This document shows positions 37,257 to 60,498 of a stretch of 64,000 nucleotides of DNA, in pieces. Origin of the DNA: an uncultured Armatimonadetes bacterium (GTDB lineage: Bacteria > Armatimonadota > Hebobacteria > Hebobacterales > Hebobacteraceae); assembly GCA_963716175.1 (NCBI GenBank), contig OY970296.1:452031-516030 (forward strand). The letters run 5' to 3'. Numbering within the stretch: the stretch's first letter is position 1; the number at the start of each line of letters is the position of its first letter. Position numbers and translations under genes: made by a program. The notes under the pieces are model-generated. The model worked only from the letters and a program-made list of their open reading frames with translations. It had not been told where the DNA came from and did not search any database.

Positions 37257-37293
37257 TCCGTAGGGCAGGAGCGTTTCTCCTGCCAGTTGTACG
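37257..37293. repeat. REP-like palindromic element, GTAGGGCAGG family (GTAGGGCAGGAG-cgttt-CTCCTGCC)
   Basis: 8-bp perfect stem with a 5-nt loop; shares the GTAGGGCAGGAG head with the copy at 53321. Confidence 0.6.
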
Positions 37294-37302
37294 GTAGCGG
37301 GC

Positions 37303-37375
37303 CTGGACCGCCCGCCCTACAGAACCGCGGTCCTGCAAACGGCCCAGCGGGCATGGAATGCCCGCCCTACAGCGG
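37303..37375. repeat. REP-like element, GGGCAT-n4-ATGCCCGCCCTACA family; overlaps the radical-SAM stop codon
   Basis: CGCCCGCCCTACAG ... GGGCATggaaATGCCCGCCCTACAG; same arm as the copies at 47516 and 53355. Confidence 0.6.
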
Positions 37376-38392
37376 CGGCCCCTCATACGCTAGATAGCAG
37401 GCGCGGCAGAAGGCCGGGTTGCGGCCGGTGCGAATCTGCTCCCGCAGGCGCTGCATCGCCGAGCCGTTCCAGGCGGTGGCGAAGCTGGCGCCCGACTCCA
37501 GCGCATTGCCCAGCAGCAAGCCCTCTGGGCCCGCGGCATAAGGACACGGGGCCACGTCTCCCCGGACCGTGATCGCAGTCCTGCCCCAGGGCCAGCGGCA
37601 GGGCCTGCCCTCCGCCGGCTTCCGCGGCGGGGGAGGCGCTTCGGGACAGCGGAACTCGAGATTCGCCGCCAGGGCGAGGCGGCGGGCCTCGGGGAGCACG
37701 CGCTGTAGATCCTGGCCCAGCACGCGGCGCTCCGCCACCACGCGCTCCAGGGACTCAGACCCGAAGTTGGTGAGCTTGGCGGTGCACAGCAGGCCGTCCA
37801 CTCCCCACTCCGCGCAGCGCTGAACCAGCGCCGGAATCTGTGGGGCCGATTCCCGCTGGATCACATGCCAGACCCGGATCACCGGGGACCGCCGCCGGCC
37901 TCGCTCCCGCACCAGGGCCGCGATCCCCTGGGAGATGCGCTCCAGGTCGGACCCAGGCCGCAGCCGGGCATGAGTCTCTGGATCGGCGGCATCAACCGAG
38001 ATGTTGAGATGGTTGAGGCCACAGGTGAGGAGCTGGCGACGTGTCTCCTCGCCCAGCACGCTGCCATTGGTGGTGGTGAGCACCCGCACTCGGCGGCGCC
38101 GCGCCTCCTGCACCAGGCCGAAGAAATCCGGGTTCAGCAAGGGCTCGCCCAGCCCCACCAGCTTGATCCGATAGACGGTGGGAAGCTGGTCGAGCAGTCG
38201 GGAGAAATCGGCGAGTGAGAGGTGGGCGCGCGGGAAAGCGCCATCGGTGCTGGGGCAATGGGGACAGCGGTAGTTGCAGAAGCTGGTGGGCTCGATGTCC
38301 GCCCGCGCCGGGAGCGCGCGGCTCGCCGCCGGGCGGTGGCGGTAGGCTTGCCGCAGGCGCAGGGAGTTCAGCAAGGCGGAAGCTGGCCGCAT
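37367..38392 (-). CDS. Radical SAM enzyme with a C-terminal SPASM/twitch-like Cys cluster
   Basis: CNYRCPHC (CxxxCxxC) radical SAM motif. C-terminal CRWPWGRTAITVRGDVAPCPY...CRACY auxiliary cluster cysteines. Start at the internal Met (MRPASALL) of the 427-aa ORF, which itself opens on TTG. Confidence 0.8.
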   Translation of the reverse strand: MRPASALLNSLRLRQAYRHRPAASRALPARADIEPTSFCNYRCPHCPSTDGAFPRAHLSLADFSRLLDQLPTVYRIKLVGLGEPLLNPDFFGLVQEARRRRVRVLTTTNGSVLGEETRRQLLTCGLNHLNISVDAADPETHARLRPGSDLERISQGIAALVRERGRRRSPVIRVWHVIQRESAPQIPALVQRCAEWGVDGLLCTAKLTNFGSESLERVVAERRVLGQDLQRVLPEARRLALAANLEFRCPEAPPPPRKPAEGRPCRWPWGRTAITVRGDVAPCPYAAGPEGLLLGNALESGASFATAWNGSAMQRLREQIRTGRNPAFCRACYLAYEGPPL

Positions 38393-38403
38393 GCCGCGTC
38401 CCC

Positions 38404-39139
38404 TCAGAACAGCAGCGAGAAGGTGATGGGGCGAACCCGCCAGGATCCCTCTTCCTTCACCAGCCAGAGGTTCCCGCTGACGTGCTTGCGGAGAAGCCCG
38501 GCGAAGCGCAGGGTGGCATCGAAATCCACCCGGATCCCGTTCAGGGTAGTGGGCCGCCCGGCCACCTCCAGGCGGGTCATCTTCACCCAGTGGGGTGGGC
38601 GGCGAGGCACATTCCACCAGTGGAAGGTGAGTGCCTTCATCCCCCCCCAATCAGACCGCAGCCAGGCGTGCAAGAAGTCGAACGCCGCCTGCCGCACCGC
38701 GGGCTCCTGGCGCCGGTCGGCCTTCGTGGGGCTGCGGTCGGGGACCTGCGCCTCCGGAGGCAGCTCGTTGAACCAGTAGAGCTGGCGCACCTGCCAGCTC
38801 TTGCTCGCGCCCTCCTCCACGTAGCGCAGCACCATGATGCCGCGGGTCGGGAGATTGGGGTCGGTCATGGGTCCCGCGGAACTCAATCGCCCCGATCCTC
38901 CCATCCGCCCTCTGTTTGTCGAGCTGAGGCATGTGCGCGAACGGGCAGGGGCCATAGAGATTGGCCTTCTGATTGGGAAGCATGCGCTTGATCGCGTCTC
39001 GGTCGTTGCGGCTGAAGGCGAAGAGGAAATCCCGCGCCACCTGCGCCGCCTCCGGGGGCATACCCTGGGCCCTGCTCGGACTCCCCCAGGCCATCGCCAG
39101 TCCAACAGTCAGCATCACGGCCGCGATTTTGGTCTTCAT
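38404..39139 (-). CDS. Secreted hypothetical protein (signal peptide plus NTF2/SnoaL-like region), apparently split over two frames
   Basis: Frame X: MKTKIAAVMLTVGLAMAWGSPSRAQG signal plus AAQVARDFLFAFSRNDRDAIKRML. Frame Y from about 38869: MVLRYVEEGASKSWQVRQLYWFNE...LWLVKEEGSWRVRPITFSLLF. Both look protein-like and the join is near 38870-38930. Confidence 0.35.
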
Positions 39140-39453
39140 GGCTCTCCCGAAGCTGATGTTACCTGGTTTCGACGAGAAAGCCAAGCACTTGGGCCAGGAG
39201 CTGCCGATTGCGCGCAGGCAAAGAGGAAGGAGGCCGCGGCGCGAGGTATAAAGTCTACTGGTGGTTGCGGTGCCGTCGCAGTTACCAGACCGACGAGCAG
39301 CCCCCTGGCCACACCTTGCAAGGCGGCTCGACCTCGCAGGCGGTGCACCTGCTGGCAAGGCGAGCCGCAGACGGCGGGCCACCGGGATGCAGCGCAGCCT
39401 GGCGGGCTTGCGCGCGGGCCGCAGTAGCTCTAGTAGGAGGCAAGATATCCATC

Positions 39454-40896
39454 ATGTCAGTGGTAGCGCGACCCACGCCCCGCGCGCGGCCGCGGACCGC
39501 GGGTGAAGCCCGAGCGCGACAGATCCGGTGGTGGCACTACCTGCTCGCCGGCACCGGCCTGGTGACGCTGGGTGGAATGGCCTATGGCTTCTACGCCGCC
39601 TGGTTCGCCGTCACCCATGTCCGGACCAGCTACGCGCGGGTCAGTGGCTATGTTGTAGTTCTGTCGGCGAAATCCGACACCCGCGTCAAGCGGGTGCTGG
39701 TGCGGACGGGAGAGAAGGTCCGCGAGGGGCAAACGCTGGCCATCCTGGACAACGCCGATGTCGCCGCCCAGGCCGAGCAGGCCAAGGCCACGCTGCTGGC
39801 GCGGGAAAGCGCCCTCAACCGGGCGGAGGCCGAGCTGGATATGACCATCCGGCAGAGCGCGGCCAGCATCGAGGAGGCGGAGGCGCAGCTGGCCGCCTCC
39901 CAGGCGCGGCTCTCCCAGGCGGAGGCAGAGAAGGAGATGGCCTCCCGCACCGAGCGGGATGAAGTGAAGCGCGCCCAGGCCGAGCTGGCCGTGGCCAAAG
40001 CGCGGCTGAGGCAAGTGGAGGTGGGCCCCCGTCCCCAGGAGATCGAGCAGGAGAAGGCCGACCTGGCTTCCGCGGAGTCCCAATCGGCCAGTGCCGCGGC
40101 CACCTTGCGGCGGATGGAGAAGCTGCAGAAAGAAGGCGCGGTCTCGGAGCAGGCGCTGGACGCGGCTCGCACGGATCTGGAGGTGGCCCAGGCCGCGGTG
40201 AACTTGCGTCGCCAGAAGTTGAGCCTGCTGCAAGCCGGCAGCCGGCCGGAGGATATCGAGGCCGCACGACAAGCAGTGACCTCCGCCGAGGCCGCCGTGG
40301 CGCTGGCCACGGCCAAGAGCTTCGACAGCGAGATGAAGGTCCAGCAAGTGGCCACCCGGGTGGCGGAGAAGCGGCAGGCTGCGGCTGGAGTTCGGGGGGC
40401 CCAGTCCCTGCAGCGCACGGTAGCCCTCAAGGAACAGGACGTGGTGGCACAGCGAGCCGCAGTGGCCGAGGCGAAGGCCGCCCTGGAAGCGGCCAAGGCT
40501 CGTGTCTCGGACACGGAGCTGCGCAGCACGGACAACGGGGTAGTGGTGGCGGGACAGGGCCAGAGTATTCACGAGGGCGAGTCAGTCACCAACGGACAGC
40601 CCATCGTCACCATCGTCTCCACCGCGCGGCCTTTCTGGATCAGCGCCTCCGTCTCCGAACTGCAGGTGTCCCAGGTGAAGGAAGGGCAGCCGGCGCTGAT
40701 CTGGATTGACGCCTTCCGCAGGCAGGTCTTCCATGGCACGGTGTCACAAGTGGGAGGGGCCACCGAGTTCTCGGCCGCGGACACCCCGTGGGCCTTGAAG
40801 CAGGTACCACTGAGGCTCAGCTTCGACCCCGGCAAAGTGAAGGACAGTCTCAAGCCCGGCATGAGCTGTCGGGTGTGGATAGACGTGCGGCACTGA
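39454..40896 (+). CDS. HlyD-family secretion protein / efflux periplasmic adaptor (membrane fusion protein)
   Basis: N-terminal TM anchor, long coiled-coil region (AEAQLAASQARLSQAEAEKE...) and a C-terminal beta-barrel region (VTIVSTARPFWISASVSELQVSQVKEGQPALIWIDAF). AGGAGG RBS upstream. Confidence 0.85.
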   Translation: MSVVARPTPRARPRTAGEARARQIRWWHYLLAGTGLVTLGGMAYGFYAAWFAVTHVRTSYARVSGYVVVLSAKSDTRVKRVLVRTGEKVREGQTLAILDNADVAAQAEQAKATLLARESALNRAEAELDMTIRQSAASIEEAEAQLAASQARLSQAEAEKEMASRTERDEVKRAQAELAVAKARLRQVEVGPRPQEIEQEKADLASAESQSASAAATLRRMEKLQKEGAVSEQALDAARTDLEVAQAAVNLRRQKLSLLQAGSRPEDIEAARQAVTSAEAAVALATAKSFDSEMKVQQVATRVAEKRQAAAGVRGAQSLQRTVALKEQDVVAQRAAVAEAKAALEAAKARVSDTELRSTDNGVVVAGQGQSIHEGESVTNGQPIVTIVSTARPFWISASVSELQVSQVKEGQPALIWIDAFRRQVFHGTVSQVGGATEFSAADTPWALKQVPLRLSFDPGKVKDSLKPGMSCRVWIDVRH

Positions 40897-40900
40897 CGCG

Positions 40901-40929
40901 GTGGGGCGCGGGCCCAGGCCGCGCCCCCA
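40901..40929. terminator. GC hairpin GGGGCGCGG-gcccagg-CCGCGCCCC between convergent genes
   Basis: 9-bp perfect stem read from the sequence; no strong U-tract. Confidence 0.35.
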
Positions 40930-40933
40930 ACTG

Positions 40934-41527: not shown

Positions 41528-41583
41528 GGGTTTCCTCGCGAGGGCGTGACCCTCGCCTCGCCGGGTACTGCTAGCTGCGGTCC

Positions 41584-43851
41584 CTACCAGGCCCGCACTC
41601 TGGACAGCTCCGACTGGAGCTTGCAGAGCCGGCTGTAGAGCCCATCGGACTCCAACAGCTCATCGTGGCTGCCGATCTCGCCGATGCGGCCATGCTCCAT
41701 CACGACGATCTTTGTCGCCTTGCGCAGGGTCGAGAGCCGGTGCGCGATGGCGAACGTGGTCCGATTCGCCACCAGGCGCTCCAACGCCTCCTGGATCAGC
41801 ATCTCGGTCTCGGTGTCAACCGAGGAGGTGGCCTCGTCCAGGATGAGAATCCGCGGGTTCTTGAGAATGGCGCGGGCGATGGAGACGCGCTGGCGCTCGC
41901 CACCGGACATCAACTGCCCCCGCTCGCCGGTGAGGGTATCGTAGCCATGGGGCAGGTTGACGATGAAGTCGTGGGCGTTGGCCGCCTTGGCGGCGGCCAC
42001 GATCTCCTCTGGCTTGGCCTCGGGCGCCCCGTAGGAGATGTTCTCGGCCACCGTGCCGTGGAAGAGGAAGGGCTCCTGCAGCACCACGCCGATCTGCTGG
42101 CGCAGGGAGCGCAGGGAGAGCTCCCGCACGTCATATCCGTCTATCCGGACCTCGCCCTCGTCGACATCGTAGAAGCGGCTCAGCAGTTGCACCAGGGTGC
42201 TCTTCCCGGCTCCGCTGGGACCCACCAGCCCGATCACTTCCCCCGGCTCGGCCACGAAGCTGACCTCCTGGAGTACGGGCTTGCCGGGCTCATAGCTGAA
42301 GGTGACGTTGTCGAACTCCACCCGCCCCTCGAGCCGGGGCAGGACCACCGAGCCCGGCGCCTCCGGGATCTCGGGCGCGGTATCGAGCACCTCGAACACG
42401 CGCTCCGCGGCGGTGAGGGCGTGCTGCACCCGGTGGTTCATCTCGCCCAGCATCTGCACCGGCATGTAGAACTGCCACATGAGCTGGGTGAACATGACCA
42501 GGGTGCCCACCGTGGTCAGGCCCAGCACCGCCTGGTAGCCGCCATAGCCGTAGACCACGAGCGAGCCCACGGAGGTGATAAGGCCGATGGCCGGGAAGAA
42601 AAACGTCCACAGCTTGGCCGCATTCAGCTCCTGGGTGAACAGCGCGCCGCTGCGATCCCGGAATCGCTTCGACTCCCGGTGCTCCTGAGCGAAGGACTTG
42701 ACCACTCTGATCCCCGGGATGGAATCGGCCAGCACCGCGCTCAGGCCCGCCCACCGTCGCCACACCTTCTGGTAGACCTGGTGGATCAGGCGGCCAAACC
42801 AGTAAGTGCCGATGGCGATGAAGGGGGTGGGCAAGAGGGTAAGCGCGGCCAGCGCGGGGTTGGCCGCGAACAGCATCACGCAGATCACGGGGATGGTCAG
42901 CAGGTTGATGATGATCTGCTGCAGGCCATCGGCGATGAAGTACTGCAAGCGCATGATGTCGTTGGTGACGCGGGACATGATCTGGCCGGTCTGCTTCCGG
43001 CTGAAGAACCCGAGCGAGAGCATCTGCAGGTGGTCGTAAAGCTCGGTTCGCATGTCCAGCACCACCCGCGCCCCCAGCCACTCCATCATGTAGCCGCGGG
43101 CCATGCTCACCACGGTCCGCACCAGGTAGATCAAGAGCAGCCAGGTCACCACCAGGGAGAGCCCCGGCAGGTACTTGGGCCTGAGCACGCCGTCGAAGAG
43201 ATAGCGGGTGACGTAGGCCGGCAGCAGGTTCAGCACAGTCAGGACGATGCTCAGGAGGAAGCCCACGATCGCCACCGTGTGGTAGGGCCGCAGGTAGCCG
43301 ATGAGGCGCGCGAGCAGTTGCCCTCGCTTCATGCAGAAAGGGCAGACCTCAGACCAGCGAGGCAGCGCCCGCCCGCAGGTGGGGCAGCGGACGCTGCGCT
43401 GCGGGCCGTGTCCCTTGCGGCCGCCCTCTTCCTGTTTCTCGTCCTCCGAAGAGAGGCGGCGCAGGATGTAGTAGGCGCGCGACATCTGCGGAGCCACAGA
43501 GCGGCTGAACCGCAGCAGCTCCACCGACTCCGAGCCCGTGACCGCCTCCAGCGAGCCGCTGCCGATGAAATCGCGCAGGCGGAAGCGGCGGACATCGGAC
43601 AGAGGCAAGTCTACCTCCACCCGGGCCGCGCCGTTCTCGGGCGCCAGAGTCGCCAGCCGCCGGTCAGTGACCAGCAGCCACCGGTCGCCGTACTCCCCCT
43701 CAGGCGTGATGTCGCTGCGGAGGCTGATCAGGCGCCGCTCGTCCTCCTGCATCAGGCGAGCGACCTCCGCCTCCACGGCCGCAGGCAGCTCCTGCTGGAG
43801 CTCGGCGTCGAGCAGCTTATCTATCTGTTGGCGTTGGGCTTCTGTCATCGT
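41584..43851 (-). CDS. ABC exporter (fused permease and ATPase) with an N-terminal bacterial PH-like domain and a zinc ribbon
   Basis: Walker A GPSGAGKSTL, signature LSGGERQRVSIARA and Walker B ILILDEATS. Six TM helices. N-terminal RWLLVTDRRLATL...VELLRF (PH-like) and CPTCGRALPRWSEVCPFC. Confidence 0.85.
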   Translation of the reverse strand, partial: TMTEAQRQQIDKLLDAELQQELPAAVEAEVARLMQEDERRLISLRSDITPEGEYGDRWLLVTDRRLATLAPENGAARVEVDLPLSDVRRFRLRDFIGSGSLEAVTGSESVELLRFSRSVAPQMSRAYYILRRLSSEDEKQEEGGRKGHGPQRSVRCPTCGRALPRWSEVCPFCMKRGQLLARLIGYLRPYHTVAIVGFLLSIVLTVLNLLPAYVTRYLFDGVLRPKYLPGLSLVVTWLLLIYLVRTVVSMARGYMMEWLGARVVLDMRTELYDHLQMLSLGFFSRKQTGQIMSRVTNDIMRLQYFIADGLQQIIINLLTIPVICVMLFAANPALAALTLLPTPFIAIGTYWFGRLIHQVYQKVWRRWAGLSAVLADSIPGIRVVKSFAQEHRESKRFRDRSGALFTQELNAAKLWTFFFPAIGLITSVGSLVVYGYGGYQAVLGLTTVGTLVMFTQLMWQFYMPVQMLGEMNHRVQHALTAAERVFEVLDTAPEIPEAPGSVVLPRLEGRVEFDNVTFSYEPGKPVLQEVSFVAEPGEVIGLVGPSGAGKSTLVQLLSRFYDVDEGEVRIDGYDVRELSLRSLRQQIGVVLQEPFLFHGTVAENISYGAPEAKPEEIVAAAKAANAHDFIVNLPHGYDTLTGERGQLMSGGERQRVSIARAILKNPRILILDEATSSVDTETEMLIQEALERLVANRTTFAIAHRLSTLRKATKIVVMEHGRIGEIGSHDELLESDGLYSRLCKLQSELSRVRAW

Positions 43852-44198
43852 GCTCTTCCCGCGCGCACGCCGGCTTGGCCACAGGCCGGGCCGGCGCACC
43901 TCATCATGCCCTAATTTCCACGAGAATGCAAGTTCTTCCCTCCTTGCTCCGTTGGATATGGGCGGCCACATATACCGCGGACACAGCCAAAAAACTTGTG
44001 CGCGAATGCCAGGGATGTGGTATCCTCACACGGAAATGCAGTCTGGAATCGCGGTGGTCCCGCGGACGTTAACTCCCTCTTGAAAGGGGGTGGCACGGGT
44101 GAGCTGTGGAAGCTGTGGGAAGAAGGCGGCCCCGAAGAAGACCAAGAAGAAGAAGTAGGCCGCAGCAGTAGCGCCCGCCACGCGCGGGAACTGAACCG

Positions 44199-44227
44199 AG
44201 GCCGGCCTCCCAAGCAGGAGGCCGGCC
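44199..44227 (+). terminator. Intrinsic-terminator-like hairpin GAGGCCGGCCTCC-caagc-AGGAGGCCGGCC followed by TTCGCTTTCC
   Basis: 11-bp perfect stem; sits downstream of a Lys-rich sORF and at the 3' end of the convergent membrane protein gene. Confidence 0.4.
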
Positions 44228-44266
44228 TTCGCTTTCCGCTCACATGTTCAAGCAGCCGACCGGTGA

Positions 44267-46258: not shown

Positions 46259-46378
46259 CTGCTCTCCTGCCGCGCTCTATTCTCCGGTGCTTCCGCCGGG
46301 TCCTGTTGCGGAGGAGTTGGCTGCGCAGCGGCGAACGGAGGCCGCCACCGTTGCTCGCGAAGCCCCCGGGGAGGACGA

Positions 46379-47423
46379 CATGAGAAGAGCGAAGGCGAAG
46401 CTGCGCGCGGGCGTGATCGGGATCGGCATGGGCCGGCTGCATATGGAGGGATATGCCACCCATCCGCGCAGCGAGCTGCTGGCGGTATGCGATCTCAATG
46501 TGGCCAGGGCAAAGGCATTGGCGGAGAGATGCGGCGCCCGCTACGTCTTCCGCGACTGGCGCCAGCTCATCGCCATGGATGAGCTCGACCTGGTCTCGGT
46601 GGCAGTTCCCAATTATCTCCATGCCCGCATGACCATCGCCGCCCTGCGGGCCGACAAACACGTGCTGTGCGAAAAGCCGATGGCCACCCGGCTGGAGGAC
46701 GCGGAGATCATGGCCCGGGAGGCGAAGCGGGCGAAGAAGCGGCTGATGGTAGACATGAGCTATCGTTTCGACCCGCTGCAGCAGGAGATGTGGCGCCGCA
46801 TCCGGCGGGGCGACCTGGGCCGCATCTACTACGCCAAGTCGCACTACACGCGGCGCAAGGGCATCCCGCTGGGGGCCAGCGCCTGGTTCATCAACAAGCG
46901 CCAGGCCGGGGGAGGACCCAGCGTTGATCTCGGTGTCCACGCCTTCGATCTGGTGTGGTGGCTGATGGGGTCGCCCAGGCCCACCTGGGTGCTGGGCTCG
47001 ACCTATGCCGAACTGCTGCCAGAGCGAGCGTCGCAGATGGGGGTGAAGGGCGATGTGGACGATCTCGCTGCTGCCGTGGTGAAGTTCGATACCGGCCAGA
47101 CCATCTTCTTCGAGGCGAGCTGGGATGGGCACGTTCCTGGGCATGAGGGCTACGAGCTTTACGGGACCAAGGCCGGGGCCACTTGCCACGACTGGGAGAG
47201 CGATCTCAAGGTGACCATCCATTCCGACGACCGCCGCGGCAGGTCGGTGGACAGGCCGGTGAAGGCCACCCGCAAGACGCCTAGCGCCTATTGGCACTTC
47301 GTAGATGCCTGCTTGGATCGGCGCCTGAAGATGACCGCCTCCGCCGAAGAGTGCTTGCACGTGGCCCGGGTGCTGGATGCCATGAACCGATCGCAGAAGA
47401 CCGGCAAAGCGATCATGCTGTAG
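46379..47423 (+). CDS. Gfo/Idh/MocA-family NAD(P)-dependent oxidoreductase
   Basis: LRAGVIGIGMGRLHMEGY Rossmann start and the EKP motif (VLCEKPMA). Confidence 0.9.
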
Positions 47424-47515
47424 GGCGGGGTCTCCCGATGGCTAGGCCCTTCGGGCCGCCATCCCGGCCTCTACAGGCTTAGGGACCCCGCCAGGTGTGT
47501 CCAGAAGACAGCGCT

Positions 47516-47552
47516 CACTACACGGCGGGCATGGGAATGCCCGCCCTACAAG
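47516..47552. repeat. REP-like palindrome CTACACGGCGGGCAT-ggga-ATGCCCGCCCTACAA
   Basis: 9-bp stem with CTACA flanks; same family as 37303-37375 and 53355-53383. Confidence 0.6.
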
Positions 47553-47580
47553 GGCTTGCCACTCAGAAAGGAATCGCCCA

Positions 47581-48435
47581 ATGATGCCTCCCGCCATCTG
47601 GACCGGGATCTATGCGGCGAAGAACACCTGCGACACACTGCGGGCACTGCGCGCCATGGGCTGGCAGTGGTTCGAGCTTTCCACCGAGCACTTGCACCAG
47701 ATCGAGCAGCACAGCCGCCAGCAGGAGCAGATCGGGGCCGTGCGGGCGACTTTGGAAGAGTTAGCAGCGAGAATGCCCCAGGCCCACGCCCACCTGGAGG
47801 CGGACATCGCCCATCCTGATGAGTCACGGCGCGAGGCCGACATGGAGCGCATCCGGCGCGAGCTGATCTGCTGCGCGGACCTGGGCGTTGAGTACGTCGT
47901 TCTTCATCCCGGCACCGGCGAAGGGCACAGCAGCCCGGAGGAGCTTCGCCCTATCTACCAGCTCGATCTGCGGAATCTGTCACGCCTCGCCGACCAGGCC
48001 GGGGAGCTGGGGGTGAGGATCGGGCTGGAGAACACCATGGATTACTCGGGGAGGCGGCACTTCGGCGCCAGGCCTAGCGAACTGCTGGACTTGCTGGCCG
48101 ACCTCGACCACCCCGCGCTGGGCATCTGCGTTGACACCTCCCATGCCCATGTCCAGAAGCTCGATATCGGGGCCGCGATACGGGAGTTCGGCCAGCACCT
48201 GTGCGCGACCCATATCTCTGACAACGACGGCTCCGGGGACCAACACCTCACCCCTGGGAAAGGCACCATCAACTGGCCCGCGGTGATGGCCGCCTTCAAG
48301 GAGATCGGCTACCAGGGCATCTTCAACCTGGAGATCCCGGGCGAGTCCGAGTTTGGCACGCCGCCCACCCCGGAGGTGCTGGAGGCGCGCATTCGGGGCG
48401 CTTTCGAAGTCGCCCAGCGGCTAGTCAGTTCGTAG
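47581..48435 (+). CDS. Sugar phosphate isomerase/epimerase (xylose-isomerase-like TIM barrel)
   Basis: GLENTMD...CVDTSHAH...HISDNDGSGDQHLTPGKGTINW metal-binding pattern typical of the AP_endonuc_2 / xylose isomerase-like family. Confidence 0.85.
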   Translation: MMPPAIWTGIYAAKNTCDTLRALRAMGWQWFELSTEHLHQIEQHSRQQEQIGAVRATLEELAARMPQAHAHLEADIAHPDESRREADMERIRRELICCADLGVEYVVLHPGTGEGHSSPEELRPIYQLDLRNLSRLADQAGELGVRIGLENTMDYSGRRHFGARPSELLDLLADLDHPALGICVDTSHAHVQKLDIGAAIREFGQHLCATHISDNDGSGDQHLTPGKGTINWPAVMAAFKEIGYQGIFNLEIPGESEFGTPPTPEVLEARIRGAFEVAQRLVSS

Positions 48436-48467
48436 GGGAGCTGGTAGGGCAGGTCCGCGACCTGCCC
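48428..48467. repeat. REP-like element TTCGTAGGGGAGC TGGTAGGGCAGGTC-cgc-GACCTGCCC; overlaps the stop of the upstream gene
   Basis: 9-bp perfect stem, shared GTAGGG head. Confidence 0.6.
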
Positions 48468-48490
48468 AGCAATCTGGGTATGCTCCTGGC

Positions 48491-52432: not shown

Positions 52433-52443
52433 CTGGTCTTCCT

Positions 52444-52468
52444 CTCTGTCTAGGTAGGGCAGGTCCGG
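52444..52468. repeat. REP-like palindrome GGTAGGGCAGGTCC-g-GGACCTGCCC just upstream of rsgA
   Basis: 10-bp arms, nearly perfect palindrome. Confidence 0.6.
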
Positions 52469-52702
52469 GACCTGCCCGATTGGTCAGGCCAAAGCAAACG
52501 CCACAGGCCTCTCGGCCTGTGGCGGTAGATCGGCGTTCCGCTGACGAAAGGCGTCAGCGCGCTATCGCGTCCTCAGGCATAGGAGGCAGGTGGTGAGCTA
52601 TTGGGTATAGGATGTAGGTGTTCTTGGTCATCTCACACCCCCTCCTTTCCTGGGGAATGCACTGCCAGCCGAGCGACAGTATACGCGCTGCGCCCAGCCT
52701 CG

Positions 52703-53308: not shown

Positions 53309-53320
53309 GTCGGATCAGTT

Positions 53321-53383
53321 TCGTAGGGCAGGAGCCTGCCTCCTGCCCCCTTCTCTGTAGGGCGGGCATGCCTATGCCCGCCG
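53321..53383. repeat. Two adjacent REP-like palindromes: TCGTAGGGCAGGAG-cctgc-CTCCTGCCC and TGTAGGGCGGGCAT-gcct-ATGCCCGCC
   Basis: The first matches the 37257 copy and the second the 37303/47516 copies, which links the two sub-families. Confidence 0.65.
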
Positions 53384-53457
53384 CGGGGTACGACCATCAT
53401 GGCGGGTAAGGTTCACCCGCTTGCTGTGCGGACACGGCCGCAGGCTGGGAGCCTGCG

Positions 53458-54225
53458 CTACTGAAGCCCGCCCCACTGCGGCTTCCGCGCCTTCCAGATG
53501 ATGGTCGCCGGGACCATGCGCTGGCGCGCCGGGGAGTAGTAGTCGCCCCAGTCCTGGCCGCTGCCCTGGTCCACCGGCTCCGGCTCGATGATGTCCAGCA
53601 CCTCCAAACCGGCCGCTCGCAGCAATCGGAACCACTCGCCAACAGTGCGCTGAAACTGGGCGACGCGGGGGTGGGACTTCATCCCTTTCTGCTCCCAGGT
53701 GTAGGAATAGGCGGTATCGAAGTAGCTGCTCTCGATCCGCAGCTCATCGTCTGCCAGGCAGTACCAGAACGGGTGGTCCAGGCTGAAGACGAACAGCCCC
53801 CCCGGCCGCAGCACCCGCGCCACCTCCGCGAAGCACCGGGCGATGTGCTCGACGTACATGAGAGCGTAGGCCGAGAAGACGATGTCCTGGCTCGCGTCTG
53901 CGAGGGCCGACAGGTCGTCGGCTGAGCCCTGCAGGAAGGTCGCCTCTACCCCATTGTCGGCGGCCAGCTTGCGGCCAAACTCAATCTGGGCATCAGACAG
54001 ATCGAGGCCGGTGGCGATGGCGCCGCGCTTGGCGAAGGCGATGCTGCACTGCCCTCCTCCGCAGCCGATTTCCACCACACGTTTCCCGCGTACATCGCCG
54101 ATCAACTGAAGCTGATCCTCGTTCGGGCAGTGCGGGCCATAGTGCACGAAATCGGTCGGGATCTTATGCTCGGCCTGGTAGTGAGGCGAGATCTTATTCC
54201 AGGCCTTGCGCATGTCAATTCGCAT
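53458..54225 (-). CDS. Class I SAM-dependent methyltransferase
   Basis: Motif I VVEIGCGGGQ; motif post-I GLDLSD. Confidence 0.8.
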   Translation of the reverse strand: MRIDMRKAWNKISPHYQAEHKIPTDFVHYGPHCPNEDQLQLIGDVRGKRVVEIGCGGGQCSIAFAKRGAIATGLDLSDAQIEFGRKLAADNGVEATFLQGSADDLSALADASQDIVFSAYALMYVEHIARCFAEVARVLRPGGLFVFSLDHPFWYCLADDELRIESSYFDTAYSYTWEQKGMKSHPRVAQFQRTVGEWFRLLRAAGLEVLDIIEPEPVDQGSGQDWGDYYSPARQRMVPATIIWKARKPQWGGLQ

Positions 54226-54236
54226 ATCAGCCTCCG

Positions 54237-55076
54237 TCACAGCTTCACCGCCACCACTCGCCCATCGCCCATCTCGCCCGATTGCCACTGGGCGATATCG
54301 GTGTGCAGGCTTTGATAGGCCTTCCCCACCCAGGCCTCGCCCATCAGCTTGCGATAGCGCCCTTCCTGCTCCTCCAGCTTTCGCCTAGCAGGGAGCCAGC
54401 CGCACTCCAGATCGAACCCCGAGATGTCCTCGGCGCTGATCACCCGATACCCCATGTGCGTGACCCTCTCAGCCACCTCGTCAAGGGAGAGAAGTCCGGG
54501 ATCCCTGCTGGCCGCGCGGCGGATGATCCCAGTGAAAGCCACCCGTCCGCCTGGTACCAGGAGGCGCGTAATCTCCCTCATCCAGCTCAGGTCCGCCGGG
54601 AAGGTGCACTGCGACCAGGCCACAGTGAAGGAAGTATCGGGCAAGGGCACTGCCTCCACGCTGCCGCAGATGAAACTCACCTTGTCATCTGAACGACGGA
54701 GGCGCGTCAGCCGCTTGGCTACCGCGACATGCACGGGCGAGATATCAACACCCACCACCGTGCAGCCGTAATCGCGCGCCAACTGCCGCGCCGGCCCGCC
54801 CACGTAGCAGGCGAGATCCACCACCCGATCGGCCGCGGTGAGGCGCACCAGTTCCGCCATCCGCGTGGTATCCTCCGCGCCTCCGAGATGGTACTGCTCG
54901 CCCAGCAGAATGGCGTCAACGGACTCGTGATTATGCGGCAGCAAGCCGGCGGCCAGCAGCGGTTCGAGCAGTGCGGCGATCTGCTGCTCCGTATCTCCAG
55001 CCAGCTCCAGGCGCCAGCCCTCAATCAGCTTCTGGACCCTTCTCACCTCGGCCCCTTCTGTTGCCGCGCCGCTCAT
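54237..55076 (-). CDS. Class I SAM-dependent methyltransferase
   Basis: VVDLACYVGGPARQLA (motif I variant), VGVDISP, LLVPGGRVAFT. Confidence 0.7.
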   Translation of the reverse strand: MSGAATEGAEVRRVQKLIEGWRLELAGDTEQQIAALLEPLLAAGLLPHNHESVDAILLGEQYHLGGAEDTTRMAELVRLTAADRVVDLACYVGGPARQLARDYGCTVVGVDISPVHVAVAKRLTRLRRSDDKVSFICGSVEAVPLPDTSFTVAWSQCTFPADLSWMREITRLLVPGGRVAFTGIIRRAASRDPGLLSLDEVAERVTHMGYRVISAEDISGFDLECGWLPARRKLEEQEGRYRKLMGEAWVGKAYQSLHTDIAQWQSGEMGDGRVVAVKL

Positions 55077-55975: not shown

Positions 55976-56234
55976 CTCAGTTTTCTCCTCCCACAAGGTC
56001 GGACGCGCCTGCCTCTCACCACCCGGAATTCCCAGTGGCGTGAAGCAGGCGCGTCAAGGGCTGAGGTCGCGTTTCTCCTGCGCGCGGCTATGGTTCTGTC
56101 GCTGGTCAGCCGCCGGGATTATCCCGGATCAGACGCTGTCGGTCAAGAGGCCGAACCATCGCGCGACGGGCAGGAATGGAGCGGACTGCGCCCGAAAGGT
56201 CTTCGGGGATTCTGAACTGGAAGATCGAGCGATG

Positions 56235-57437
56235 AACTCCTTGCAGCGACTGCTGTCCTTGAGTGCGGCGGAGAAGGCGCGCCTCGGCATCGAGGCCACT
56301 CCCGCCGAGATTGCCCAGCAACCGGAGATGTGGCGCGACACGGCCCGCCGCTTCGCGGCAGCCGCGCCCGACATCCGCAAGCTCCTGGCGCAGATCGGGC
56401 TTCCCGGCGGCTCATCGGAGATCATCTTCAGCGGGGCCGGCACGTCGGATTTCGTCGGCCGGTGCGTGCAGGGCCCGGTCAGCGCCGCGCTGGCCACCCG
56501 CGGGATCGCCTGCCCCACTACCGACATCGTCACCCATCCCGAGTACGCCTTCCCCGCCGACCGGCCCGCGCTGATGGTCTCGTTCGCCCGCTCGGGCAAC
56601 AGCCCGGAGAGCGTCGCCGCCCTCGATATCGCGGTGGCCGAACGACCGCAGACCCGCCACCTTGTGATCACCTGCAATGAGCAGGGCGAGCTGGCGCGCA
56701 GGGCCCGCCAGCTCGCGGATCGCGCCTTCTGCCTGGCGCTCGACCCTCGCACCAACGACCGCGGCCTCGCCATGACTAGTGCTTTCACCTCTATGGTCGT
56801 CGCCGGCCTCGGCCTCGCGTACCTATATCAGACCGAGGACTACCTGGCACTGGTCGAGCGTCTGGCCGATGCAGGAGAATGCGTCCTCCGGCTCGCGCCC
56901 GACATCACGCAGTCACTCATCAAGCGCAGGCCGCGCCGGGCCTGCTTCCTCGGGTCCGGTGCGCTCTACGGCGCCGCGGTCGAGTCCCACCTCAAGCTTC
57001 AGGAGCTGACGGATGGGAATATCATCTGCCTCTGCGACACCTTCCTCGGCATTCGTCACGGCCCCCGCGCCGCCATTCATGACGACACCCTTGTGGTCTG
57101 CTTTCTCTCTTCCGACTCCTATGTCCGGCGCTACGAGCTGGATCTGGTCCGCGGCAATCGCCAGCAGAAGGTGGGCCTCGCGCATCTCGTGATCGCCGAC
57201 CGTGCGGACGACGAACTCACCGGTCTCGCCGACGAGGTCATCGCCTACGACCCGGAGGGGAAGCTGAAACTGCCGGATCACATGCTTCCACCCGCTGCCA
57301 CCATCGTGGGCCAGCTCCTGGGGCTGTTCGCCTCCCTGGACCATGGGCTGAAACCGGACGCGCCCAGCGCCAGCGGCGTCATCAGCCGCGTGGTGCAGGG
57401 TGTGACCATCTACCCGCGGGAGCGGCGCGCCCGATGA
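56235..57437 (+). CDS. SIS-domain sugar isomerase (AgaS/GlmS-C-like double SIS)
   Basis: Two SIS repeats (IIFSGAGTSDFVG ... ALMVSFARSGNSPESV; FLGSGALYGAAVESHLKLQELT). Confidence 0.8.
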   Translation, partial: NSLQRLLSLSAAEKARLGIEATPAEIAQQPEMWRDTARRFAAAAPDIRKLLAQIGLPGGSSEIIFSGAGTSDFVGRCVQGPVSAALATRGIACPTTDIVTHPEYAFPADRPALMVSFARSGNSPESVAALDIAVAERPQTRHLVITCNEQGELARRARQLADRAFCLALDPRTNDRGLAMTSAFTSMVVAGLGLAYLYQTEDYLALVERLADAGECVLRLAPDITQSLIKRRPRRACFLGSGALYGAAVESHLKLQELTDGNIICLCDTFLGIRHGPRAAIHDDTLVVCFLSSDSYVRRYELDLVRGNRQQKVGLAHLVIADRADDELTGLADEVIAYDPEGKLKLPDHMLPPAATIVGQLLGLFASLDHGLKPDAPSASGVISRVVQGVTIYPRERRAR

Positions 57438-58102
57438 TCCAGGCCGTGCTGTTCGATATGGATGGGCTGATGGTGGACACCGAGCCCATTCACTTCCAGG
57501 CCTTCCGCGCCATGATGGGAGAGTACGGCTACGAAATCGTCGAAGACCTGATGCCAGGCTTCGTGGGCTTTCCGGAGGCCGATAACATCCGCGACCTGAA
57601 GCGCATTTACCATCTGGACGCCCCCCCACAGGAGATGGCGGCCCGCCGCTATGCCATCTTCATGCAGCTCATCAGGACCGAGCCCTTCAGTGTCTTCGCG
57701 GGATTCTGGGAGCTGTCGGAAGAGGCGCGCCGCCGTGGCCTCAAGCTGGCCGTGGTCTCGTCGAGCACCGCGGAGCAGGTGGAGGTGATCCTGCGTCGCC
57801 TCTTCGCCACTCGGCCCGAGCTGGGTGCCCCTGAGGGCTACTTCCAGGCCATCGTCACCGGCGACGACATCGCGCGCAACAAGCCCGCGCCGGACATCTA
57901 CCTGCTGGCAGGGGAACGCCTGGCGGTCCCGCCGGGCCGGTGCCTGGTATTCGAGGACACTCCGCCTGGCGTGGAGTCCGCGGTAGCGGCGGGGATGATC
58001 GCCGTCGGCGTGCCCAATGATTACAGCCGCAATCTGGACTTCCCCGGCGCCCGCGCGGTTATCGGCAGCTTGCTGGAGGCGGCGCCCTATCTCGACATCT
58101 GA
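57434..58102 (+). CDS. HAD-IA hydrolase (beta-phosphoglucomutase / sugar phosphatase-like)
   Basis: Motif I VLFDMDGLMVDTE, motif II SSST, motif III/IV K...FEDTPPGVESAVAAGM. Confidence 0.85.
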   Translation: MIQAVLFDMDGLMVDTEPIHFQAFRAMMGEYGYEIVEDLMPGFVGFPEADNIRDLKRIYHLDAPPQEMAARRYAIFMQLIRTEPFSVFAGFWELSEEARRRGLKLAVVSSSTAEQVEVILRRLFATRPELGAPEGYFQAIVTGDDIARNKPAPDIYLLAGERLAVPPGRCLVFEDTPPGVESAVAAGMIAVGVPNDYSRNLDFPGARAVIGSLLEAAPYLDI

Positions 58103-58117
58103 AGTGTTGGAGGAACT

Positions 58118-59056
58118 GTGCCGTCCGTCGCCATCATCGGTGAGCTCAACCTGGACCTGATCGTGACCGGCGCGCCCGGCCTGCCGGAGCCCGGCCTGGA
58201 GAAGCTGGTCGAGGGGATGGAGCTAACCCTGGGCAGCTCCTCCGCCATCATCGCCGCCCAGTTCGCGCGGCTGGGCGATGATGTGCTCTTCATCAGCAAA
58301 GTGGGGGGCGATGACTTCGGCCGCCGGGCGCTGGAGTTCCTGCGCAGCATCGGCGTGCCCACCGGCGCCGTTGCCGTCCAGCCGCCCCTACGGAGCGGCC
58401 TGACGATCTCGATTGCGGTCGCCGGCGAGCGCGCCATGCTCACTCAACTGGGCTGCATCGAGGAGATGCGCTGGCAGGATGTGGACTTCGATCTCCTGCG
58501 CGGCCGCCAGCACCTGCACATCAGCTCCTTCTACCTCCAGCGCAACCTGCGCCCGGACATCGGCCGCATCTTCGCGCGCGCCCACCAGATCGGCCTCACC
58601 ACCTCCCTCGATACCGGCTGGCCCAGCGGGGGCGAGGTCAACGGCAACCTGGAGAGCTGCTGGCCGCACCTCGATGTCTTCCTGCCCAATGAAGTGGAGG
58701 CGATGCATCTCACCGGGCGCGACTCCGTGGAAGAGGCGCTGGAGGTGTTGGGCCAGCGTGTGCCCACCGCGGTGGTCAAGCTGGGCGCCAGTGGCGCCAT
58801 TGCCCGCCAGGGAGAGCGGATCGCCCGGCGCGCTGCCTTCGCAGTAGACGTGGTCGAGACCACCGGGGCCGGCGATTCGTTCAACGGCGGCTTCCTCCAC
58901 GGTTACCTGTCCCGCGTCGACCTCACCGATTGCCTCGACCTGGGCCTGGCTTGTGGCGGGTTGTCCACCCGCGCGGCTGGAGGCACAACCTCACAAGCCA
59001 CGCTCGCGGAGGCGATGCGGTTCATCCACACCGCCCCACGGCGGGCCGCGGCGTAG
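58118..59056 (+). CDS. PfkB-family carbohydrate kinase (ribokinase/fructokinase-like)
   Basis: N-terminal GELNLDL and C-terminal VVETTGAGDSFNGGFLHG (the PfkB signature). Confidence 0.85.
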   Translation: MPSVAIIGELNLDLIVTGAPGLPEPGLEKLVEGMELTLGSSSAIIAAQFARLGDDVLFISKVGGDDFGRRALEFLRSIGVPTGAVAVQPPLRSGLTISIAVAGERAMLTQLGCIEEMRWQDVDFDLLRGRQHLHISSFYLQRNLRPDIGRIFARAHQIGLTTSLDTGWPSGGEVNGNLESCWPHLDVFLPNEVEAMHLTGRDSVEEALEVLGQRVPTAVVKLGASGAIARQGERIARRAAFAVDVVETTGAGDSFNGGFLHGYLSRVDLTDCLDLGLACGGLSTRAAGGTTSQATLAEAMRFIHTAPRRAAA

Positions 59057-59189
59057 GGGCGCAATTCATTGCGCCCAGAGGACGGCTGGGCGTGATGAAT
59101 CACACCCCTACAGGTCTCTGTTGCCCTGCTGCTCGTTCTCCATTAGAATGTCACCAGTCCTGCGCAAGCGCGCGGCAAGGGGCGGTGCT

Positions 59190-60458
59190 ATGCAAGCCAT
59201 CTTCCTCATCATTGGCATACTGGTCGGGGCAGCGGTGGGGTGGTTGTGGGCGAACTGGCGCGGGGCGGGGCGCCTGCAGGCCGAACGGGAGCGACTCGGG
59301 GCGGCTCAGGCCGAGGCCGAGACGAGGGCGCAGGCCGAGCGCGAGCAGCGCGTCGCCGCCGAGACCCGGCTTCAAGAGGTGGGAAAGCAGCTCACCGATC
59401 GGGACACTCTGATCGCTGCGGCAAAACAACAGCTTGCTGACACCTTCAGAGCGTTGTCTTCTGATGCCCTGCGCGACAACAGCCAGGCCTTCGTGGAGCG
59501 AGCGGAGCAGTCTCTCGAACCGGTGAGGGAGACGCTGAGGCGCTACGAAGACCAGATACGCTCACTGGAAGGGCTCAACCGAGAGGTCTATGGGAACATC
59601 AGCCGCCAAGTGACAAGTCTGCTAACGAGCGAGCAGCAGTTGCAGCGAGAGACGGTTAACCTCGTCAACGCGTTACGACGGCCGCATGTGCGCGGTAAGT
59701 GGGGCGAGTTGACCTTGCATCGCGCGGTTGAACTGGCAGGGATGTCAGAGCACGTAGACTACCTTGAGCAAGTGACCTCTTCGGCCGACAGCGGGAGGAT
59801 CCGGCCCGACATGGTCGTCACACTTCCGAACGGAAGGCAGGTGCTGGTGGATGTAAAGACTCCCCTTGACGCCTATCTCACCGCGTTGGAAGCCAGCTCG
59901 GAAGAGGAACGAAAGGCCTGTCTATTGCGGCACTGCCAGCAGATTCGCCAGCATATGAACGCATTGGCAGGCAAGTCGTATTGGGAAGGGTTCAGATCGG
60001 CTGCTGATTTCGTGGTGATGTTCATACCGGGCGAGTCCTTCCTCTGCGAAGCGGCCGCCAGCGACCCGGCCCTGCTGGATGACGGCGCACAGAAGAACGT
60101 CATCCTTGCAACTCCCACTACTTTCATTGCCCTGTTGCGAGCCATAAACTTGGGCTGGAGGGAGGAAAGGCTCGCCAAGAACGCTGAGAAGATCAGTGAA
60201 GCGGGCCGACAGCTTTACGACGGGGTTCGCACTTTCACTGATCATCTTCTGGAGGTGGGCCAAAGGCTAGACACTGCTGCCAAGTCATATAACAAGGCGA
60301 TTGCCTCGCTCATGAGCCGCGTCTTACCGAGGGCACGCAGGCTCCGGGAACTGGACGCCGGAACCGGCGCGGATTTGCCGGAACCGGCGCTGATAGAGAC
60401 TCAAGTCCGGTATCTGGAGAGACCAGAGGAGCCAGAGGAGCCCGCACAAGGCCCGTGA
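59190..60458 (+). CDS. rmuC: DNA recombination protein RmuC
   Basis: N-terminal TM, long coiled coil and C-terminal RmuC nuclease-like region (VRGKWGELTLHRAVELAGM...FVVMFIPGESF...ILATPTTFIALL). Start at the internal Met of the 501-aa ORF. Confidence 0.85.
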   Translation: MQAIFLIIGILVGAAVGWLWANWRGAGRLQAERERLGAAQAEAETRAQAEREQRVAAETRLQEVGKQLTDRDTLIAAAKQQLADTFRALSSDALRDNSQAFVERAEQSLEPVRETLRRYEDQIRSLEGLNREVYGNISRQVTSLLTSEQQLQRETVNLVNALRRPHVRGKWGELTLHRAVELAGMSEHVDYLEQVTSSADSGRIRPDMVVTLPNGRQVLVDVKTPLDAYLTALEASSEEERKACLLRHCQQIRQHMNALAGKSYWEGFRSAADFVVMFIPGESFLCEAAASDPALLDDGAQKNVILATPTTFIALLRAINLGWREERLAKNAEKISEAGRQLYDGVRTFTDHLLEVGQRLDTAAKSYNKAIASLMSRVLPRARRLRELDAGTGADLPEPALIETQVRYLERPEEPEEPAQGP

Positions 60459-60468
60459 CGGCCGTGGT

Positions 60469-60498
60469 TCGTAGGGGAGCCCCTCTGCGGGCTCCCGG
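60469..60498. repeat. REP-like palindrome TTCGTAGGGGAGCCC-ctctgc-GGGCTCCC between convergent genes
   Basis: Shares the TTCGTAGGGGAG head with the copy at 48428. Confidence 0.55.

Follow-up and report, generated by a model that had tools for sequence, protein, structure and literature searches.

GTAG-headed palindromic repeats of probable REP type in the chromosome of an uncultured Armatimonadota-like bacterium

The GTAG super-family of repetitive extragenic palindromic (REP) elements (Di Nocera, De Gregorio and Rocco 2013, PMC3733652) includes SMAG / GTAG-6 to -9 of Stenotrophomonas maltophilia and offers a close parallel to the repeats described here, which lie in a 64-kb stretch of DNA (the window; contig OY970296.1, positions 452,031 to 516,030) from an uncultured Armatimonadota-like chromosome, nearest to Candidatus Hebobacteria. 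The main text of PMC3733652 describes units with an unpaired terminal GTAG, a mostly perfect stem of 6-13 bp and a short loop; sub-families that differ by complementary stem changes; singletons, head-head and head-tail pairs and clusters; the use of TAG as a stop codon; and occasional in-frame intragenic copies, all of which have counterparts in the window. It also describes genes for REP-associated tyrosine transposases (RAYTs) that are flanked by repeats, as we find in relatives of the window, and tail-tail dimers. GTAG REPs typically exceed 100 copies per genome.

The repeats of the window are very probably REP elements of this super-family, short non-autonomous DNA units, as a sequence-only reading of the same DNA had proposed: the GTAG head, the short GC-rich hairpin, the covarying stem sub-families, the dimers and clusters, and the use of TAG as a stop all match. 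Every feature seen in these repeats is already described for GTAG-type REPs (PMC3733652), and what is new is the particular stem sequences and the host lineage. The window stems (GGCGGGCAT, GGCAGGAG, GGCAGGTC and others) are not among the sequences of that paper that could be compared, GTAGGG is absent from its main text, and Armatimonadota lie outside the eight phyla for which that text reports GTAG REPs. We found no REP or RAYT described for Armatimonadota in the searchable literature, and literature searches for the REP sequence strings returned just unrelated primer matches. REP/RAYT systems have been studied almost solely in Proteobacteria; the window adds a GC-rich example with several sub-families from an uncultured lineage, and leaves the understanding of REPs unchanged.

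In architecture, the short perfect-palindrome type of S. maltophilia is closest. The group 3 REPtron of that species (Corneloup et al. 2021, PMC8266576) has a REP of 23 nucleotides with an 8-bp perfect palindrome and a 3-nucleotide loop, which is cut by TnpA_REP at CT. Window units likewise have a short perfect palindrome after GTAG and a CT adjoining the unit (immediately 5' in the main sub-family), whereas their loops are more variable in length and sequence (2-7 nucleotides). As for the group 3 REP, the expected substrate would be a folded single strand; the window family is known from sequence alone. The REPs and bacterial interspersed mosaic elements (BIMEs) of Escherichia coli (GTAG-3, with the TnpA_REP YafM), which have been linked to mRNA 3'-end effects, share with the window a GTAG head, a mainly extragenic location and a tendency to cluster. 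However, E. coli REPs are about 35-40 nucleotides long and imperfect, with an obligatory bulge, whereas the window units are shorter and have no bulged long stem; and E. coli BIMEs alternate regularly in orientation with defined spacer motifs, neither of which is seen in the window. The REPINs (REP doublets forming hairpins) of Pseudomonas fluorescens (Bertels and Rainey 2011, PMC3116915) form one long hairpin, as a pair at 59053-59111 is predicted to do, and single RAYT genes flanked by repeats, a REPIN-like trait, occur in relatives of the window. Unlike REPINs, most window copies are singletons or heterodimers, and we found no conserved spacer.

Enrichment and inventory of the repeats

Counting both strands, the window (GC content 67%) contains 11 copies of the decamer GTAGGGCRGG. 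Dinucleotide-preserving shuffles contained 0.29 ± 0.57 copies, and none of 100 shuffles attained 11. GTAG with a hairpin starting a few bases further on (seven or more pairs, no more than one mismatch) was matched 18 times in the window, compared with 3.1 ± 2.0 in 30 shuffles. When nine control tetranucleotides were put in the place of the head, they gave 1-12 matches, though most of them are commoner than GTAG. The window has 42 perfect hairpins of 8 bp or more, of which 12 have a GTAG next to them and 30 are headless. The enriched family of GTAG-headed palindromes proposed in the sequence-only reading is thus real, and every site listed there exists to within about 10 nucleotides and folds as an unpaired head plus a hairpin. 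The longer conserved head given there, TCGTAGGG, did not hold up: with just four occurrences, one of them in a gene and lacking a hairpin, it shows no enrichment, and what is conserved in the head is GTAG, in most cases GTAGGG.

Our inventory comprises 17 elements at 12 separate sites. A unit begins with a 5' GTAG and continues with a GC-rich hairpin of 7-11 bp that has a loop of 2-7 nucleotides; CT directly precedes GTAG in the commonest sub-family. The head is exactly GTAG in 16 of the 17 units and GTTG in one (36370-36395). Sixteen units are 23-30 nucleotides long with stems of 7-11 bp, and one is a composite of 55 nucleotides. Instead of the two stem types originally distinguished we count at least seven, and the supposed CTACA tails are simply the GTAG heads of minus-strand copies. 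Four elements (9948, 15425, 20350 and 36370) lie outside the interval considered in the sequence-only reading; 47420-47474, 53439-53461 and 59053-59076 with 59088-59111 lie inside it and had not been listed. The 17 elements and one head-only remnant are as follows, type A (four copies) having the general form GTAG-GGCGGGCAT-loop-ATGCCCGCC.

9948-9973, minus strand: type A, GTAG GGCGGGCATG-CC-CATGCCCGCC; in the pyruvyl-transferase open reading frame (ORF) 9223-11895.
15425-15454, plus strand: type A', GTAG GGTGGGCATGT-CTCT-GCATGCCCGCC, with G.T wobbles; inside the long ORF 13951-15702.
20350-20379, minus strand: type A', twin of 15425; 3' tail of the HAD-like ORF 19788-20423, at the junction with the next glycosyltransferase gene.
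36370-36395, plus strand: type B with degenerate head, GTTG GGCAGGAG-ACTCG-CTCCTGCC(C); hairpin 36373-36395, between the Lon-like and Abi_C genes.
37260-37284, plus strand: type B, GTAG GGCAGGAG-CGTTT-CTCCTGCC; first of a three-REP cluster in the spacer between the radical-SAM/SPASM and Abi_C genes.
37296-37320, minus strand: type D, GTAG GGCGGGC-GGTCCAG-GCCCGCT.
37346-37370, minus strand: type A, GTAG GGCGGGCAT-TCC-ATGCCCGCT; the head TAG (37369-37367) is the radical-SAM/SPASM stop.
47420-47474, plus strand: composite 55-nucleotide palindrome that starts with GTAGGGCGGGGTC and ends with CTCTAC; the head TAG is the GFO/IDH/MocA stop.
47524-47549, minus strand: type A, GTAG GGCGGGCAT-TCCC-ATGCCCGCC; fold z-score -5.58.
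48432-48443, plus strand: head-only remnant GTAGGGGAGCTG; its TAG is the AP_endonuc_2 stop.
48444-48467, plus strand: type C, GTA GGGCAGGTC-CGC-GACCTGCCC; after the head-only remnant, between convergent genes.
52454-52477, plus strand: type C, GTA GGGCAGGTC-CGG-GACCTGCCC; in the gap between the NUDIX stop and the RsgA start, antisense to both.
53323-53348, plus strand: type B, GTA GGGCAGGAG-CCTGC-CTCCTGCCC; first of a three-REP cluster between the methyltransferase and NUDIX genes.
53357-53382, plus strand: type A, GTAG GGCGGGCAT-GCCT-ATGCCCGCC; in tandem with the type-B unit, which lies 8 nucleotides upstream.
53439-53461, minus strand: type E, GTAG CGCAGGCT-CCC-AGCCTGCG; the head TAG is the stop of the methyltransferase ORF 53458-54288.
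59053-59076, plus strand: type F, GTAG GGGCGCAAT-TC-ATTGCGCCC; the head TAG is the PfkB stop.
59088-59111, minus strand: type F', GTAG GGGTGTGAT-TC-ATCACGCCC; 11 nucleotides from its type-F partner.
60471-60496, plus strand: type G, GTAG GGGAGCCC-CTCTGC-GGGCTCCC; 12 nucleotides 3' of the RmuC stop.

Stem covariation, arrangement and gene context

Folded as single-stranded DNA or RNA, all units have a free head followed by a stem of 7-11 bp, and the folding of each copy that had been suggested as a check gave an unpaired head and a hairpin throughout. The RNA hairpins have predicted energies of -12 to -19 kcal/mol. We examined covariation in an alignment with N-padded loops and stems registered by hand, as plain MAFFT mis-registers the stems. 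Double-sided changes affect six of the 11 stem positions and fill 29 cells, adding 16 pair types. With the 3' partner shifted by 1-3 columns no more than four such cells were left, and shuffling gave 6.5 ± 2.2. The number and variety of the double changes are not a product of the way the alignment was built.

Identity between copies ends after 26-36 nucleotides and the DNA on either side differs from copy to copy; each is thus a unit of its own and not part of a longer duplication. A single duplicated segment was the alternative that the sequence-only reading had named against itself; with identity stopping at the unit borders, it falls away. The most similar copies are 15422-15457 and 20347-20382, which are identical at 36 of 36 positions, including the same G.T wobble; they are inverted, lie 4.9 kb apart and have different flanks. 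These twins bracket 4.9 kb of a polysaccharide cluster (epimerase, GT2+GT1 fusion and HAD-like gene), and could allow inversion of this segment.

Most units are singletons or heterodimers of differing stem types. The inverted pair 59053-59111, with 11 nucleotides between its members, folds as one 59-nucleotide hairpin of -37.5 kcal/mol and is REPIN-like. In the 37260/37320 heterodimer the GTAG ends lie outside and 11 nucleotides separate the stems; it folds as two hairpins. The clusters at 37260-37370 (orientations plus, minus, minus) and 53323-53461 (plus, plus, minus) each contain three units of mixed stem types; the spacers are unrelated, and there is no regular alternation. The description of the family as BIME-like is apt only in a loose sense, for the clusters and dimers, and not with respect to the regular alternation and spacer motifs of the E. 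coli type.

Within the composite at 47420-47474 there is an inner palindrome, GATGGC-TA-GGCCC-TTC-GGGCC-GCCATC; the element folds at -18.8 kcal/mol (z-score -2.96). A second palindromic repeat, CGAYGGCTAGGCCCTTCGGGCCGCC, is present as inverted copies of 34 nucleotides at 47435-47468 and 21861-21894, which are 88% complementary; the former lies within the GTAG...CTAC composite that follows the GFO gene, and the latter is found where ORF 21842-23005 begins. In the stretch 48429-48490, the segment TTCGTAGGGGAGC corresponds to the 5' half of the type-G REP found at 60468, and a matching GCTCC follows about 40 nucleotides on. The predicted fold of 48429-48490 pairs TTCGTAGGGGAGC with GCTCC and leaves the type-C REP between the two halves, which may represent one REP inserted into the loop of another.

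The genes of the window are ordinary for a chromosome and include a polysaccharide-synthesis cluster at 7-23 kb, a tRNA-Met (29220-29294), and genes for TPR, FKBP, EamA, Lon-like, Abi_C, radical-SAM/SPASM, HlyD, DUF1854, ABC transporter, DUF6785, oxidoreductase, sugar-phosphate isomerase-like, methyltransferase, GNAT, RsgA, NUDIX, SIS, HAD, PfkB, RmuC and GH123 proteins. Fourteen of the 17 units are intergenic or share just a stop codon with a gene, the exceptions being 9948, 15425 and 20350. The earlier statement that all copies are intergenic or overlap stop codons holds for the copies it listed; it does not hold for 9948-9973 and probably not for 15425-15454. A location between convergent genes, which had been claimed for several copies, is clear for 48444 alone and may apply to 60471. 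The remaining intergenic copies have neighbours that share one direction of transcription, the repeats themselves pointing either with or against it. Many copies follow an ORF immediately and in sense orientation. Of 35 genes checked, 12 have TAG as their stop, which in five cases is the head TAG of a REP (radical SAM, GFO/IDH/MocA, AP_endonuc_2, methyltransferase and PfkB). The ABC-transporter gene also ends in GTAGGG (ggcctgGTAGGGACCGC; 41584-41590, minus strand) with no hairpin after it, and this may be a head-only REP remnant.

The copy at 9948-9973 is in frame and encodes VAGMGMPALQ within a polysaccharide pyruvyl-transferase domain (Pfam; residues 41-349 of the protein). An alignment with seven homologues places it in a variable loop, with no net change in length, and the REP is missing from the closest homologues (56% and 52% identity). 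We found no solved structure for the pyruvyl-transferase. The copy at 15425-15454 is probably intragenic, the third-position GC of ORF 13951-15702 being coding-like on both sides, and 20350-20379 supplies the last codons of the HAD-like ORF. REP elements explain short identical repeats, apparent ORF extensions, shared TAG stops and the odd 10-residue stretch in the pyruvyl-transferase.

The sequence-only reading had also considered terminating hairpins. None of the elements has a T tract after the hairpin, and a terminator scan flagged one of the 17 (53326-53348), on the strand opposite to the flanking genes; the elements are not canonical intrinsic terminators. Over the window as a whole, terminator-like sites are no more numerous than expected from shuffles. 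In an Rfam scan of the window, tRNA-Met alone was above the gathering thresholds, so no curated RNA family covers the elements.

One pair of repeats had been thought to frame a putative defence island. A lone Abi_C / AbiJ-like gene (36464-37252, minus strand), which lies in a slight dip of GC content (0.638), is indeed bracketed by type-B copies in direct orientation, at 36370 and 37260. The in-frame ATG at 37252 is a likelier start for this gene than the 37354 of the ORF list, since the latter would lead to an overlap with the REP cluster. The matches from PADLOC were a weak one to AbiJ (E-value 3.5e-5), a generic one to RmuC and a partial one to pVip (viperin model), the last caused by the radical-SAM core; with matches that are weak, partial or generic, no defence system is recognisable. 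Two type-C copies similarly bracket methyltransferase, APH, GNAT and RsgA genes. The bracketing of Abi_C stands, whereas we saw no evidence that REPs delimit or move an island, either at Abi_C or at the genes between the type-C copies.

RAYT genes and REP content in related genomes

Three fetched loci from other genomes contain a RAYT. Locus L112 encodes a RAYT of 166 amino acids between carA and carB that scores 91.7 bits against NF047646 (cut-off 80) and has type-A REPs on both sides, GTAGGGCGGGCATACCCATGCCCGCC on the plus strand just upstream and GTAGGGCGGGCGTACCTACGCCCGCC on the minus strand just downstream. Locus L019, from Armatimonadetes fen_943, has a RAYT ORF of 184 amino acids (94.3 bits; NCBIfam equivalog cut-off 80) that is flanked by inverted REPs of the GTAGGGCGGGGC type, with two GTAGGGCG(G/C)GG units upstream and an inverted one downstream. 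Both proteins are also above the Pfam Y1_Tnp cut-off. Locus L091 contains a truncated E. coli-like RAYT with GTAGGG(C/T)GGGCA(C/T) units upstream. A search with the L019 protein returned 1053 relatives at E-values of 1e-10 or lower, many of which are named RayT at source. In an alignment of 16 RAYTs the MPDH.H, WQ..FFDH and KW.YV..NP segments, which include the HUH and Tyr motifs, are invariant. The RAYTs of the relatives are only about 25% identical to an approximate sequence of the E. coli enzyme.

Metagenomes of the Joint Genome Institute were scanned with the 16-RAYT alignment, and the best 80 loci were inspected for GTAG hairpins within 250 nucleotides of the RAYT gene. Such a hairpin is present upstream at 66 loci, downstream at 60 and on both sides at 56, usually on the plus strand upstream and the minus strand downstream. 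These flanks, with cognate-type REPs beside RAYT genes in relatives, indirectly support the proposal in the sequence-only reading that the repeats may be RAYT targets. Several flanking stem types connect the surveyed loci to the window and its relatives: GTAGGGCGGGGTC, shared with the window, flanks RAYTs in L117, L119, L138, L139 and L160; GTAGGGCTGGCG is shared with L043, a syntenic Hebobacteria contig; and GTAGGGCGCGCATGTCTCTGCATGCGCGCC has the same apical stem and loop as window type A'. No perfect hairpins were found near the RAYTs of two further loci, L114 and L115; L114 has imperfect inverted GTAG units on both sides. The RAYT clade beside these REPs appears to keep an abundant REP population. 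RAYT groups 2 and 3 are the only ones reported with highly abundant flanking repeats.

CT is the cut dinucleotide of the RAYTs of E. coli, S. maltophilia and Marinomonas, and GTAG is thought to guide its choice (PMC8266576). Before the GTAG of type-A copies in fen_943, we found C in 39 of 45 and T in 45 of 45 cases. CT precedes GTAG in 18 of 19 Hebobacteria copies and in eight of nine window copies with these stem types, and may be a signature of the cleavage site. It is not conserved before the same REP in Hydromonas, Desulfatirhabdium and an Actinomycetes metagenome-assembled genome (MAG).

Scanning 185,579 species genomes for the type-A pattern gave at least 111 loci. One of these genomes' contigs of particular use is L043, from a MAG of Candidatus Hebobacteria, a class of Armatimonadota, which is syntenic with the window at 41.0-47.4 kb (72-77% nucleotide identity) and whose type-A copies have the same 4-nucleotide loop pattern as those of the window. 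The spacer between the ABC transporter and DUF6785 genes contains five to six GTAG-headed units in L043 and none in the window, so that REP content turns over at an orthologous site between related genomes. The window version of this spacer contains a tiny ORF, VSCGSCGKKAAPKKTKKKK* (44099-44158, plus strand), with a Shine-Dalgarno-like AAAGGGGGTG upstream, followed by an 11-bp headless hairpin, AGGCCGGCCTCC-CAAGCA-GGAGGCCGGCCT, at 44199-44228. The window copy at 47524-47549 is identical over 27-29 nucleotides to copies in Candidatus Hebobacteria MAG contigs, and one related MAG has at least 45 type-A copies in 289 kb, at loci selected for the repeat.

Short-read assemblies of this region may be interrupted at REP clusters, and the elements probably explain contig breaks in metagenome assemblies of this lineage. 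Contig k141_311071 (L196; ENA ERZ27247687), which encodes an identical DUF1854 protein, ends in the radical-SAM gene, short of the 37260-37370 cluster; other metagenome contigs of this lineage are 1-1.6 kb long.

Proposed mechanism, rival explanations and wider occurrence

Extrapolating from the E. coli, S. maltophilia and Marinomonas systems, we infer a RAYT in this genome, cleavage at CT and current mobility. The RAYT gene would lie elsewhere in the genome, itself between inverted REPs, and its product, an HUH/Y1 transposase, would bind the folded single strand by reading the hairpin and GTAG. Cutting at the nearby CT and rejoining of the strands would lead to units being copied, excised or rearranged. 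Stem variants would arise by paired changes, perhaps served by more than one RAYT; a parallel is provided by species with several GTAG families (PMC3733652). Since many copies lie 3' of ORFs in sense orientation, five of them giving the TAG stop, they would be transcribed as stable 3' hairpins, and these may stabilise the upstream mRNA or partly stop read-through. E. coli REP325 is a precedent for mRNA stabilisation and reduced read-through, and E. coli REPs are partly Rho-dependent terminators (bioRxiv 10.64898/2026.03.23.713779).

Several points weigh against this explanation. The window itself gave no RAYT gene, either by tblastn with an approximate E. coli query or with the 16-RAYT profile on a six-frame translation (best E-value 1.1), and the copy count comes from the 17 units of one 64-kb window. 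What types E, F and G and the 47420 composite have in common with types A-D is just the head and the architecture; they could be separate REP families. The type-G unit at 60471-60496 is the weakest member, with a fold z-score of -1.15, no better than many shuffles. The 100% pairing in the covariation alignment is true by construction, because the alignment is built on the hairpins. The presence or absence of units in the ABC/DUF6785 spacer indicates turnover, not recent transposition, the two genomes being only about 75% identical, and the RNA-level role is one that we infer by analogy.

It is conceivable, though unlikely, that the units are relics, made by a RAYT that has since been lost and persisting as neutral DNA or as co-opted RNA hairpins. 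This would agree with the lack of a RAYT within the window, with the degenerate copies (GTTG head at 36370, head alone at 48432, composite at 47420, and a basal G.T wobble in the 37296 and 37346 stems) and with the loss of the REPtron from many E. coli strains that the main text of PMC3733652 reports. However, the 36 of 36 identity of the twins, wobble included, and the perfection of most stems point to recent copying. RAYTs are moreover usually single-copy, so that absence from 64 kb is expected, and related Armatimonadota MAGs retain RAYT genes beside such REPs. A far less probable reading takes the units for host regulatory hairpins only (terminators, attenuators, 3' stabilisers or protein sites), selected site by site and never mobile. 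Their frequent sense position directly 3' of ORFs, the stability of the RNA hairpins (see above) and the Rho-dependent termination and stabilisation by E. coli REPs (bioRxiv 10.64898/2026.03.23.713779) would fit such a role, but it does not account for near-identical units of 26-36 nucleotides, each with an asymmetric GTAG head, that recur in either orientation at sites with no relation to one another, antisense and intragenic positions included. Nor does it agree with the missing T tracts and the single, wrong-strand terminator-like unit, with the same units flanking RAYT genes in relatives, or with an orthologous spacer that differs by five to six units.

GC-rich DNA yields many short hairpins, as the 30 headless perfect ones illustrate, and in a 67% GC genome palindromes might cluster by chance, or the units might be fragments of one larger duplication. 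Both explanations are refuted by the counts given above: the decamer and headed-hairpin numbers far from their shuffled values, the 1-12 matches of control tetranucleotides that are mostly commoner than GTAG, the end of repeat identity at unit borders, and the presence of exactly the same units in other genomes. Other classes of repeat were considered and rejected. Miniature inverted-repeat transposable elements are 70-300 bp long, with terminal inverted repeats and a target-site duplication, whereas the window units have 23-30 nucleotides and identity that ends at the hairpin borders. Clustered regularly interspaced short palindromic repeats (CRISPR), integron attC sites and operator sites do not fit a family with an asymmetric head and covarying stems that has no regular spacing, terminal inverted repeats or target duplication.

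The exact type-A REP GTAGGGCGGGCAT-loop-ATGCCCGCC is found, among the matches listed, in MAGs labelled as at least seven phyla (L003-L113), with the labels Armatimonadota, Chloroflexota, Actinomycetota, Bacillota, Desulfobacterota, and Beta- and Gammaproteobacteria. Some of these genomes have a GC content of 47-50% and AT-rich DNA around the repeat, namely Hydromonas, Desulfatirhabdium and MAGs with the labels Pseudomonas and Anaerolineae. In some cases the complete 24-mer agrees, as does GTAGGGCGGGCATTTATGCCCGCC between Armatimonadetes fen_943 and Hydromonas. Among the same matches, type-A loop sequences are lineage-specific, and CT before GTAG is conserved solely in the Armatimonadota copies. 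RAYTs of clearly distinct clades stand beside type-A-like REPs (those of L091 and L112 are 33% identical over 58 residues). An E. coli-like one occurs in a gammaproteobacterial MAG; the second clade is the one found in Armatimonadota, Planctomycetota, Chthoniobacterales, Bacteroidota and soil metagenomes. Provided that the labels are correct, REP/RAYT modules may have moved between phyla while keeping their DNA specificity, or unrelated RAYTs may have converged on one hairpin, an interpretation that we offer tentatively and regard as rather doubtful. A phage vector for such spread was considered and rejected, with one match in 2.9 million viral contigs. Some labels are doubtful, 'Bacillota' contigs having 65% GC and also carrying a type-B unit, and long-term horizontal transfer of RAYTs has already been proposed (PMC5581495); we therefore treat the cross-phylum REP as a lead and not as a finding. 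If true, it would be a natural experiment on how RAYTs read their substrates, whichever of transfer and convergence applies. Wider interest is possible just for this identical REP core across phyla beside different RAYT clades, and needs confirmation.

In the polysaccharide-synthesis cluster, two tandem GT2 glycosyltransferase paralogues (12071-12370 and 13141-13440) share 72% identity over 300 nucleotides at a spacing of 1070 nucleotides.

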